A stretch of DNA of 63,416 nt, filler included, from Reclinomonas americana ATCC 50394 (Eukaryota): the NCBI GenBank assembly GCA_048213135.1. It is 9 parts of 9 records of this genome, joined end to end, with 100 filler letters (N's around TTAATTAATTAA, not from the genome) between each part and the next. Parts side by side here need not be neighbours in the genome. Positions count along the whole stretch, not along the records: positions 46,322 to 59,707 come from AFZH01016547.1; 8 more parts are not named here. One strand, 5' to 3'. Position 1 is the stretch's first letter; the number at the start of each line of letters is the position of its first letter. The position numbers and the translations under genes are program-made. Below, piece after piece: positions 56,657-59,707 of the stretch. The notes beneath the pieces were generated by a model that searched no databases, was not told the origin of the DNA, and saw only the letters and a program-made list of their open reading frames with translations.

Positions 56657-56979
56657 ATGTCGACGGTGAGCATTCTCTCTTTTCCTCGTTCTTTTTGTGT
56701 GCTCACTGCCTTTCTTGTCCACAGTTCTCTGTGCACGTCAGTGCGGCGCATGATTCATCGCTGTCGGTGGTGGTGGAGGGCATGTCGGCCATGTCCACTC
56801 TTGCGGACTTGCTTCGCGAGGCCACTCGCTTGCTGCGTGAGAAGTGTGGAGATGAGCAGGTGGAGATTGTGGGAGTGGAGAAGCCGGCAGAGTATGACTT
56901 GGATGATGCCAGCGCGTTGAAGCTCAAGTCAATCGGCATCAAGCCCGGAACGCATGTGGTTGTGCGCGTAATCATGTCG

Positions 56980-57016
<37 letters not shown>

Positions 57017-59707
57017 GTGGTAGTGGTAGTGGTGTTGCTGATGCGAGTGGAGTCGCAAGGTGATTATGCGAGATGTTTGTTGCACGAGAGAATGTGTGTG
57101 CTCATCGTGCGTATTCTATCCCAGCACATCATTGGCATTGACAGAGCGGTTTGTTGTCAGTCGGGGCCTTGGGTTTCACGATGTGGTTCATGTTGCTCAC
57201 GTGATGTGCTGTGCAGTATGGCTCTCTCGAATCGCATCGACATGGCATGGGAGGGTGTGGTTGATGCCTTGCGTTTGCGCTGTCAACGCGCACTGGCGCA
57301 GTTCAGTCGCGATCATCCCGCCTTCGATGTGCGGGCGTGGGTGCCGAGTTACAAGCCTGCTGGCATGAGTGCGGCGGCAGTGAAGGCGTGGCAGGATCGA
57401 CATGCGCCGATTGCGGGCTGGCAGGTGAAGCTTTTCAAGGAGGTGCATCCGGCGGTGTTGGCATGGCGTGCTGCCTTTGACGCCGACCCCGTCTCTGAGC
57501 CTCCGTGTGACGCGTTCGACGTGACGGCCATGACGTCGATCATGGCGTTTGGTGGCCTGGTGCTTGCCGATGGTCGTAAGATGTTGTTGATTGGTGATGT
57601 CGCGGAGCGCAAAGTCGTGGAGCAGGTTCGCGAAGTGCGGAACGAGTTGGCGCACAATTCGTCAACATGGACCGAGGCCAGCGTGCAAGAGTGTCTTGGC
57701 GAGGGCGGCGTATTCCTCTCCCTCCTTGTCAAGCTGCGCCTTCCACCCGATGCGATAACTGGTTTTGCAACGCGAATTCGTGAGGCGCGTCACCTCGACT
57801 TTGTCGTTAGTACTTTCGAAGAGCGGCTGCATCGACTGGCTATGCGTGAGCTCTCGTTCTACCAGCACGACGAGAGTGTTCGCACGGACATGCAGATATA
57901 TGTGCCACTGCGATGCTCGCGTGATCGTGAAGTCTCCTCGAGAGACAAGATGACGGATCTGTTGACGGAGGTGGACGCTTTCCTCTCCGACACCAACACC
58001 ACCCAGCGTGTGTTGGTGCTGTTTGGTAATAGTGGAGCCGGCAAGACCACAACCATGTCGGTGCTGGCTGAGCGAGCATGGCGACATTGGCAGATGAGAG
58101 AGAGTCGGCGTGTGCCTGTGCGTGTACCCCTTGGTGCTCTGCGCAATGCTGATGAGCGATTGTTGGAGGAGGCACTGGAGAGACTGTCCCCCGAGTTGGG
58201 ATTGGAGTCGGATGTAAGACGGCTGCACGAGGAACCATTGCTGTTGCTGCTTGACGGGTACGATGAGTTGTATCGGGGTGTGAATCTATTTGTCAAGAAC
58301 CAGCTGGATGTGTGTCGCGATGTGAAGGTAATTATCACCTGCCGTGGTGATTATGCACTGACGGTACTGGGTGGCGTGACGCAGTATCGACGGTTTTTCG
58401 CACCGGTGGATGCACGTGGACAATTGTGCGTGCAGCAGCTGATGGAGCGGCACATTGCACCTTTCACCTCGGGGCAGATTGAGGAGTATTTTGAGCGGCT
58501 GGTGCAGCACGATGGCGACGGATGGTCGACAGCCGAGGAGTACATCCGTGCATTGAACAGTGTGCATGGACTGGATGCACTTGTGTCGAATCCATTCCTC
58601 TTGGCAGTGGTGGCTCGTGTGTTGCCGCAATTGGTGGCCAGTGGCGTGCAGCGGCCGACACGGTGTGATGTGTTTGACCAATTTATTCGACAGTGGATTG
58701 TAAGGGAACAGGAGAGGCAGACACGTCTTGGTGCCGAGCGTGTGCCAAGTGAGGACTTGTGTCTCTCGTTCTGTGAAGGACTGGCGCGGTTGATGCATGA
58801 GAGGAATGTGGTGCGTGTGTCGGTGGCGGAGAGTCGATCGGGTGATGATGACTTTGGTGGTGCGCCACTCGACCGTGGAAGAGTGGAAGATGGACCATTT
58901 GACAGGTTCCTCGGGCACAAGAACCAGCATGTGCGAGTGTGCTGTCCGATTGTGCGACGGTACGGGACGACACAGTGGGGTTTCGTGCATCTGTCGTTGT
59001 TGGAGTACTGTGTGGCGCGACATGTGTTTGCGTGGGAGACGTGGGATGAGGAGAGGAGATTGACGACAGAAGATGTGCAACAGCATGTGCTGGCAGTACG
59101 ACTGCTGAACGACAGACCATCACTGGTGGAGCAGATGGCCGAGGTGGTGCGACGGTCTCCTCGATTGCAAGCGAGACTGTGGGAGGTGATTGAGTTGTCA
59201 CGAGAGGTGGATGAAGAGCGTCTGGTGACGGCGGCGGCGAATGCAGCGACGGTGTTGTGTGTGGCACAAGTGTCGTTCAGTGGGCGAGATCTGTCCGGTG
59301 TGCGAGTGAGGGGTGCGGATTTGAGGGATGCGGTGATGCACAGAACGGTGTGGAGGGGAGCGGATTTGCGAGGGGTGAATGTGTGCATGGCGTATGCGAG
59401 GGAAGCTGATTTCAGGGGGGCGGATGTGACGGGGGTGAAGTGGCCGAGGAAACCGATGGTGGGACACTCTGGCTGGGTGATGTCCGTCGCTGTCACACCC
59501 GATGGTCAGCACATTGTGAGTGGCAGTGCGGACGAGACTGTACGAGTGTGGTCAGTGGCGAGTGGTGAGGAAGTACTACGGTTGGAAGGACACACTAGAG
59601 GAGTGAACGCCGTTGCCATTACCCCTGATGGTCAATTCATCGTGAGTGGGGGCACTGACGATATCGTGCGAGTGTGGTCGCTGATTTGCGGAGAAGAAGT
59701 GCTACGG
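56657..59707 (+). CDS. NLR-like STAND protein 2: UBL, HEPN, NACHT, pentapeptide repeats, WD40 (3' end in gap)
   Basis: Exons 56657-56665, 56725-57059 and 57217 onward join in frame. RNELAH at 57638-57655, Walker A GNSGAGKT at 58025-58048, Walker B LLLLLDGYDE, NPFLL, FVHLSLLEY, then WD40 repeats. Confidence 0.85.

Follow-up and report, generated by a model that had tools for sequence, protein, structure and literature searches.

Free-living protists have received hardly any attention in the study of NLR-like receptors, which are well known from animals, plants and fungi and now also from bacteria. The closest described systems are those in which a HEPN domain is joined to a NACHT or another STAND NTPase. 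The excerpted text of PMC3710099 describes CXorf38-type HEPN-NACHT proteins in cephalochordates and cnidarians, DZIP3-type HEPN-NACHT proteins in animals with a lineage-specific expansion of DZIP3-type HEPN in Capsaspora, and HEPN-STAND fusions in bacteria, while an excerpt of PMC9646362 reports that, in the pearl oyster, more than 50 NACHT proteins carry a DZIP3-like HEPN at the N-terminus. The same part of PMC3710099 also describes an active Swt1-type HEPN (Ava_2192 type, fused to an AAA+ ATPase) that was transferred to Naegleria, dictyostelids and Daphnia. Here, we analysed a window of 63,416 bases from the jakobid flagellate Reclinomonas americana ATCC 50394 (the whole stretch of DNA, along which all positions below are counted) and describe the receptor gene carried by its contig segment 46322-59707. 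An initial annotation, made from the sequence alone, had read this gene as a ubiquitin-like, HEPN, NACHT, pentapeptide and WD40 protein acting as an RNase-effector immune receptor.

The gene is real and, apart from its truncation by the assembly, intact. Its host is a jakobid-like protist, and its product is a STAND NTPase of the NLR-like type. Taken as a whole, the explanation that we modestly favour is an NLR-like receptor with a HEPN-type head. Full-text literature searches found no paper combining jakobid and NACHT, and none combining HEPN, NLR and protist.

NACHT, pentapeptide and WD40 domains

The main open frame runs from ATG 57218 to the end of the contig and comprises 830 codons. Position 59707, which had been given as the end of the gene, is the contig end with a linker beyond it; the gene runs off the contig, and its WD40 array is therefore truncated after about two units. 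The NACHT, pentapeptide and WD40 matches all lie above the Pfam curated cut-offs, the Walker A and Walker B motifs read as annotated (Table 1), and the presence of the three modules together is far beyond chance. Further NCBIfam matches of MfpA/Qnr type in the pentapeptide block fell far under their cut-offs. The annotated tripartite NLR-like layout was thereby recovered, with a head (residues 1-245 of the main exon), a NACHT core (264-377) followed by its arm, and a pentapeptide and WD40 tail, and a check of the sequence found every quoted string at its annotated place.

The head domain and its HEPN signal

Profile comparison of the 245-residue head revealed HEPN_Swt1 (PF18731) as its best Pfam match (E 0.013, 16.2 bits). 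This family came top in all five head scans, including four of four sub-windows at E 0.0033-0.011, with 16.2-18.1 bits overall, and DUF4145, also a HEPN family, matched the same helix (E 0.21). For an independent profile, 30 cyanobacterial HEPN_Swt1 domains (L068-L097) were collected, the family having matches in 37 of the 301 genomes sampled. The resulting hidden Markov model (HMM) gave the head 16.0 bits, against 5.6 bits for the best of 429 six-frame decoy open reading frames (ORFs) of the window, in an alignment of residues 129-153 in which R, N, A, H, N and S agree with the family consensus. A comparison by hhalign, in which 27 of the 30 cyanobacterial sequences were used and three near-duplicates left out, returned a probability of 60.4% and an E-value of 8.4e-5 over 27 columns at 52% identity. 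The two ESM-Atlas matches listed for the head are both clusters of HEPN families, one of HEPN_Swt1 (0.81) and one of the DZIP3-like type, HEPN_DZIP3 (0.76). In the aligned set of 27 cyanobacterial sequences, D51, F67, R86 and H91 of the HEPN_Swt1 domain are invariant; most of these domains are found in open frames of either about 400 or about 1100-1180 residues.

The aligned helix contains RNELAH (residues 141-146, 57638-57655), an R-x4-6-H motif with a polar residue after the R, and lies downstream of FDVTAMTSIM (residues 100-109, 57515-57544). The motif had been singled out as the mark of HEPN catalysis and stands where it was reported, but in its bare form it is uninformative: among 20,000 shuffles of the head, a bare R-x4-H occurred in 51%, which makes it worthless as evidence, and RNxxxH in 0.9%. 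According to the excerpted PMC3710099, HEPN families share little beyond this motif, in which R is usually followed by N, D or H, so a motif-only signal is what would be expected of a divergent HEPN.

A number of results weigh against a HEPN assignment. The PF18731 scores stayed below the 27.5-bit cut-off in every head scan and covered profile positions 74-97 only, and the ESM-Atlas matches, with scores under 0.9, serve as leads only. The entire HEPN signal comes from one helix, 25-27 residues around RNELAH; the head upstream of this helix gave no significant HEPN match, either by hhalign or in a MAFFT column test against shuffles. In that test, M, W, D (of FDVT) and F fell on conserved upstream columns of the family, but the same column count was reached when this part was shuffled, in 15 of 70 cases, so these correspondences do not strengthen the assignment. 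Structure prediction by AlphaFold2 (AF2) without an alignment gave an all-helical model, in line with the annotated helical domain of about 200 residues, but at a mean predicted local distance difference test score (pLDDT) of 37.8, too low for a fold search. A HEPN head was also found in none of the bacterial NACHT relatives examined. Lastly, the head is an orphan, with no homologue found by exhaustive phmmer among 1,835,955,588 representatives.

That search returned two matches only, P0003 and P0004, which align to residues 20-73 at E 2e-23. Both were rejected as spurious: they are built from near-identical units of about 86 residues, 14 in one and 7 in the other, evidently translated satellite DNA, and the E-value is inflated because many weak matches to the repeat units were summed. 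Other searches for head homologues were likewise negative, with none among 4536 candidates of a word-index search, none confirmed among 53 pattern matches in metagenome contigs or 24 in genome contigs (single-protein query), nothing in the PDB by phmmer but a quinone reductase (E 0.98), and no match in PADLOC or NCBIfam. PF18731 was found in none of five genomes with NACHT relatives, and Pfam gave no sequence-level match of the head to PF18738. A homodimer prediction for head residues 40-200, a segment whose own fold is uncertain, scored 0.00.

The confinement of the match to one sub-cut-off helix, with nothing significant upstream, could also mean that the head has no catalytic function and serves as a helical adaptor or for autoinhibition, in the manner of the bacterial NNH (NACHT N-terminal helical) modules, that RNELAH is a chance occurrence or a relic, and that signalling proceeds via partners rather than by RNA cutting. 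The bacterial relatives do carry purely helical N-terminal modules (NNH6, NNH3, ARM_5 and TPR), and the available part of PMC3710099 infers a loss of activity for some HEPN lineages, Swt1 itself among them. Such a head would not be expected to behave as this one does in three respects: no NNH family matched it in Pfam at E up to 10; R, N and H are all present, and the residues around them share 52-56% identity with the active Swt1-type domains of bacteria; and the ESM matches listed are HEPN families, with a gap of 10 bits to the decoys in the HMM comparison. We consider a non-catalytic head unlikely. The initial annotation's HEPN head thus keeps its place as top Pfam match and as an HMM hit well above the decoys, though below the curated cut-off and over a single helix. 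On these profile comparisons the head is fairly likely to be a HEPN domain, and HEPN is the best available reading of it, probable but not proven.

The N-terminal exons

Upstream of the main exon, the annotated start ATG TCG ACG followed by GTGAGC...CACAG was confirmed at 56657-56724, with a second exon from 56725 that reads FSVHVSAAHDSS...GTHVVVRV to 56970. The proposed frame of exon 2 has the highest codon-usage score of the six (0.186, the others being at most -0.015) and a G+C content at third codon positions (GC3) of 0.71, and it looks like real coding sequence. Two ORFs derived from expressed sequence tags (ESTs; P0007 and P0008, from the Reclinomonas americana set EP00694 of EukProt) match it at 92-93% identity, so that, judged by these ORFs, close copies of the exon are transcribed. 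P0007 is 92% identical over 56725-56868 and begins MSFSVHV, that is, MS joined to FSVHV. This start is not encodable by contiguous genomic sequence like that of the target, in which the upstream frame reads ...LSCPQ; it equals the start predicted by the first splice, and P0007 is consistent with a spliced form. P0008, 81% identical over 56698-56814, continues across the stretch that corresponds to the 3' end of intron 1 and resembles the unspliced form (LSCRQFSVHV, against the genomic LSCPQFSVHV). P0007 is one codon shorter and therefore comes from a paralogue or allele, so the annotated junction 56665/56725 gains indirect support, from a transcript that is not the target gene's own.

Whether this small exon belongs to the receptor depends on the second proposed intron (junction 57059/57217). 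Between exon 2 and the main exon, 56 of 176 GT/AG pairs keep the frame, which is chance level, so that frame keeping does not by itself speak for a fusion. Unspliced, the exon 2 frame hits a stop at 57061-57063, ATG 57218 is a plausible start, and no EST-derived ORF covering the head was found by phmmer among the 1.84 billion representatives. All this would suit a receptor that begins at ATG 57218 and does not include the small ORF, which would then be a gene of its own or lie as an upstream ORF in the 5' leader. Such an arrangement is possible, but it fits less well with a distance of just 154 nucleotides from that stop to ATG 57218, when 471 nucleotides separate the stop of the previous gene from the receptor gene's ATG in the neighbouring intergenic gap. 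Nor does it fit with the character of 57060-57216, whose GC3 is intron-like (0.48-0.52, compared with 0.66-0.71 in the flanking exons) and which has GT...AG ends and, near its 3' end, the same branch-like GCTCAC motif as intron 1. The Ala/Gly tract that follows exon 2, moreover, reads as an interdomain linker. On balance, an in-frame fusion of the N-terminal exons to the main exon is somewhat favoured by these features.

Two observations concern the same region. After STLADLL, P0008 continues with CRMALSS..., which resembles ..VLCSMALSN.., read in frame from the last bases of the putative intron 2 into the main exon (57205-57260); this stretch, too short for scoring, may reflect a paralogous transcript carrying both parts, or chance. 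The (GCT)n run at 56981-57013 encodes the poly-Ala linker and is a likely spot for length variation or assembly error.

The ubiquitin-like pattern that had been seen in exon 2 found no match by family profile, PDB sequence or fold. The small domain matched no Pfam ubiquitin family at E up to 10, phmmer gave no ubiquitin-like match in the PDB, and Foldseek gave none (PDB, VIA-wide) on a low-confidence model (AF2, pLDDT 53) with the element order b-b-a-b...b. In ESM-Atlas, unnamed clusters rank first, and a Rad60-SLD cluster (the domain being carried by 22% of its members) and ubiquitin follow at ranks 15 and 19 with scores of 0.87-0.88. A ubiquitin-like fold is therefore unsupported by these comparisons.

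Relatives of the NACHT module and the upstream paralogue

By protein search, the closest NACHT relatives are a metagenomic NACHT-pentapeptide-WD40 protein and, at 27% identity and E 4e-22, a partial NACHT-pentapeptide protein of Gigaspora rosea. Prokaryotic genomes scanned with a profile contained 67 loci, the best being multiple copies in metagenome-assembled genomes (MAGs) of the fungal endosymbiont Mycoavidus cysteinexigens (29-32% identity over about 500 residues) and one in a Coxiellaceae MAG. The bacterial relatives scanned carry WD40 arrays, and at least two (L028 and L044) also have pentapeptide repeats. Their N-termini consist of TPR, ARM_5, NNH6 with TIR_2, or NNH3, and this diversity indicates that the N-terminal slot of the clade swaps modules. 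In a quick tree of 22 rows, made up of the target, P0005, P0006 and 19 loci picked from the 67 for the length of their matches, the target grouped with Mycoavidus, Coxiellaceae and Gigaspora (Shimodaira-Hasegawa-like approximate likelihood ratio test, SH-aLRT, 97) on a long branch (1.12). By sequence, the target is thus placed in a NACHT-pentapeptide-WD40 clade with a variable N-terminal position, and the grouping hints at module exchange between eukaryotes and their intracellular bacteria. That the nearest NACHT relatives come from bacteria living as endosymbionts or inside cells, and from a mycorrhizal fungus, bears on how such receptors move between domains of life.

A tandem paralogue lies directly upstream of the receptor gene (Table 1). 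Its pentapeptide and WD40 tail is 68% identical to that of the target, and its NACHT is barely alignable. The 14 WD40 units of the paralogue, each of 42 residues, share a mean identity of 55%, and their variation is focused on unit positions 4, 5, 7, 23 and 25, a pattern that resembles a diversifying sensor surface. Going by this neighbour, the complete WD40 array of the target most likely also has 14 blades. By tblastn, neither the head nor the N-terminal exon had a credible counterpart upstream of or within the paralogue region, and a candidate diverged copy of the exon at 50156-50422, heading the paralogue, was rejected at a BLASTP E-value of 2.0.

The paralogue and the relatives bear on whether the gene has a part in defence at all. 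WD40 and NACHT domains are also part of proteins outside immunity, and Pfam gave several weak matches to the propellers of TEP1 and other scaffolds, both of which would be compatible with a housekeeping or signalling STAND NTPase such as a TEP1- or NWD-type scaffold. We regard a role of this kind as improbable: the adjoining, diverged paralogue has the same tail and a different head, the WD40 variability is focused on a few positions, the family is patchy with swapped N-termini that include TIR in bacteria, and the N-terminal exon has multiple transcribed near-copies. These are hallmarks of conflict genes rather than of housekeeping genes.

Proposed architecture and mode of action

HEPN domains are known to need dimerisation. 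In the NLR-like receptor with a HEPN-type head that we favour, a small N-terminal alpha/beta domain, probably joined by splicing, and an Ala/Gly linker would be followed by a helical head of about 175-245 residues carrying a Swt1-type HEPN catalytic helix (RNELAH), and then by the NACHT NTPase, a short pentapeptide beta-helix and a WD40 propeller array. Binding of a ligand by the variable WD40 surface would release autoinhibition, and NTP-dependent oligomerisation of NACHT would bring the head domains together. In the paired HEPN heads, R141 and H146 would then make up an RNase site that needs no metal, and RNA cleavage would arrest or kill the cell, or destroy foreign RNA. Analogies for ligand-triggered NACHT oligomerisation come from Apaf-1, NLRs and bacterial NACHT proteins, as described in excerpts of PMC7159879 and PMC13581612, and metal-independent HEPN RNase chemistry is described in the excerpted PMC3710099. 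We infer both the oligomerisation-triggered RNA cleavage and the immune role by this analogy.

If the head is an active HEPN, the gene would be a simple example of how a unicellular eukaryote combines sensor, NTPase and RNase in one receptor. The fullest version of this proposal, a free-living flagellate of the deep-branching jakobid lineage with an expanded and transcribed family of bacterial-type NACHT-pentapeptide-WD40 proteins, exchanged with intracellular bacteria, at least one member of which combines an active orphan HEPN RNase head with a ubiquitin-like cap, appears distinctly unlikely in all its parts together. If true, it would mean that abortive-infection-style RNase immunity operates in a unicellular eukaryote that belongs to none of the animal, fungal and plant lineages.

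Layout of the window and neighbouring genes

The window is a chain of contigs and not a continuous sequence. Its contigs are joined by linkers of the form N44-ttaattaattaa-N44, which place stops in all frames; features that cross linkers or gaps are artefacts, and neighbourhood across such joins is meaningless. On the contig of the receptor gene, an intron-containing amidase gene (46967-49770, + strand; Pfam Amidase, E 1e-12 to 1e-14) lies upstream of the tandem paralogue. The next contig carries a candidate fragment of an ISWI/SNF2-type ATPase gene (59950-61730, + strand), read by eye, whose introns start with GTGAG, GTTGCG and GTTCTT, so that 5' splice sites in Reclinomonas americana appear to be loose.

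Table 1. Positions of the receptor gene's features, its tandem paralogue and other elements of the window.
Feature	Position	Strand	Details
Proposed exon 1	56657..56665	+	ATG TCG ACG (M-S-T), A at -3
Proposed intron 1, 59 nt	56666..56724	+	GTGAGC...pyrimidine tract...TGCTCAC...CACAG
Exon 2, small N-terminal alpha/beta domain (predicted), 82 aa	56725..56970	+	Codon usage, EST-derived ORFs, AF2
Ala/Gly/Ser-rich linker	56971..57059	+	Encoded by (GCT)n / GGT-AGT microsatellite
Proposed intron 2, 157 nt, putative	57060..57216	+	GTGATT...GCTCAC...TGCAG
Head domain, residues 1-245 of main exon, HEPN-like (Swt1 type), helical by model	57217..57952	+	
Sole segment with measurable HEPN similarity, residues 129-155	57602..57682	+	PF18731, own HMM, hhalign
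NACHT NTPase core, residues 264-377	58007..58348	+	PF05729, 34.1 bits (cut-off 26.7)
Walker A, GNSGAGKT, residues 270-277	58025-58048	+	
Walker B, LLLLLDGYDE, residues 341-350	58238-58267	+	
Post-NACHT helical/winged-helix arm	58349..59269	+	Common to bacterial and Gigaspora relatives, by alignment
Short pentapeptide-repeat block	59270..59440	+	PF00805, 29.0 bits (cut-off 20.2), residues 685-719
WD40 repeats, two 42-aa units to contig end	59462..59707	+	PF00400, 76.2 bits (cut-off 27)
Tandem paralogue	51543..56185	+	Intron-split NACHT (Walker A at 51543), pentapeptide block, 14 WD40 units
(GA)n microsatellite	56308-56346		Intergenic, upstream of receptor gene
(GA)n microsatellite	63330-63416		Window end
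Linkers	12819-12918, 23342-23441, 31325-31424, 37062-37161, 43903-44002, 46222-46321, 59708-59807, 62062-62161		
Plain N gaps	20538-20846, 29825-30816		

Comparison with known systems

The animal HEPN-NACHT proteins (DZIP3/hRUL138-like and CXorf38-like), as far as the excerpted sources describe them, resemble the target in having an N-terminal HEPN with R-x4-H and N after the R, a NACHT and C-terminal repeats. The target differs from them in its protist host, in a tail made of pentapeptide and WD40 repeats and not mainly of LRR or TPR, and in a head that has no PF18738 match and no detectable homologue among the representatives searched. Its candidate catalytic helix shares 52-56% identity with that of the active bacterial Swt1-type HEPN domains, and the aspartate that is invariant in the 27-sequence alignment of the latter has a possible counterpart in the FDVT of the target. 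This similarity is limited to 25-27 residues, the upstream D/F/M/W correspondences are no better than those of shuffles, and the partner NTPase is a NACHT and not the AAA+ ATPase of the Ava_2192 type.

In the rest of the protein, the nearest counterparts are the bacterial NACHT-pentapeptide-WD40 (bNACHT-like) proteins and the Gigaspora rosea protein, whose NACHT, arm and pentapeptide regions are 27-32% identical to those of the target over about 500 residues. The bacterial proteins have the same order of NACHT, pentapeptide and WD40, but their N-termini are TPR, ARM_5, NNH or TIR, none of them HEPN-like.

Fungal NLRs of the HET-E/NWD type have a NACHT followed by highly similar 42-residue WD40 units that vary at a few positions, with HET and other domains as heads; to our knowledge, they lack a pentapeptide block. 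The combination of NACHT and 42-residue WD40 units at the Reclinomonas locus, with variation focused on a few unit positions, resembles this general arrangement.

With HEPN-NACHT already known in animals and HEPN-STAND in bacteria, the initial annotation overrated the novelty of the gene, which, as it stands, extends a known design to a new lineage and is not a new type of system. What is new here is the host lineage, the particular combination of domains and the orphan sequence of the head.

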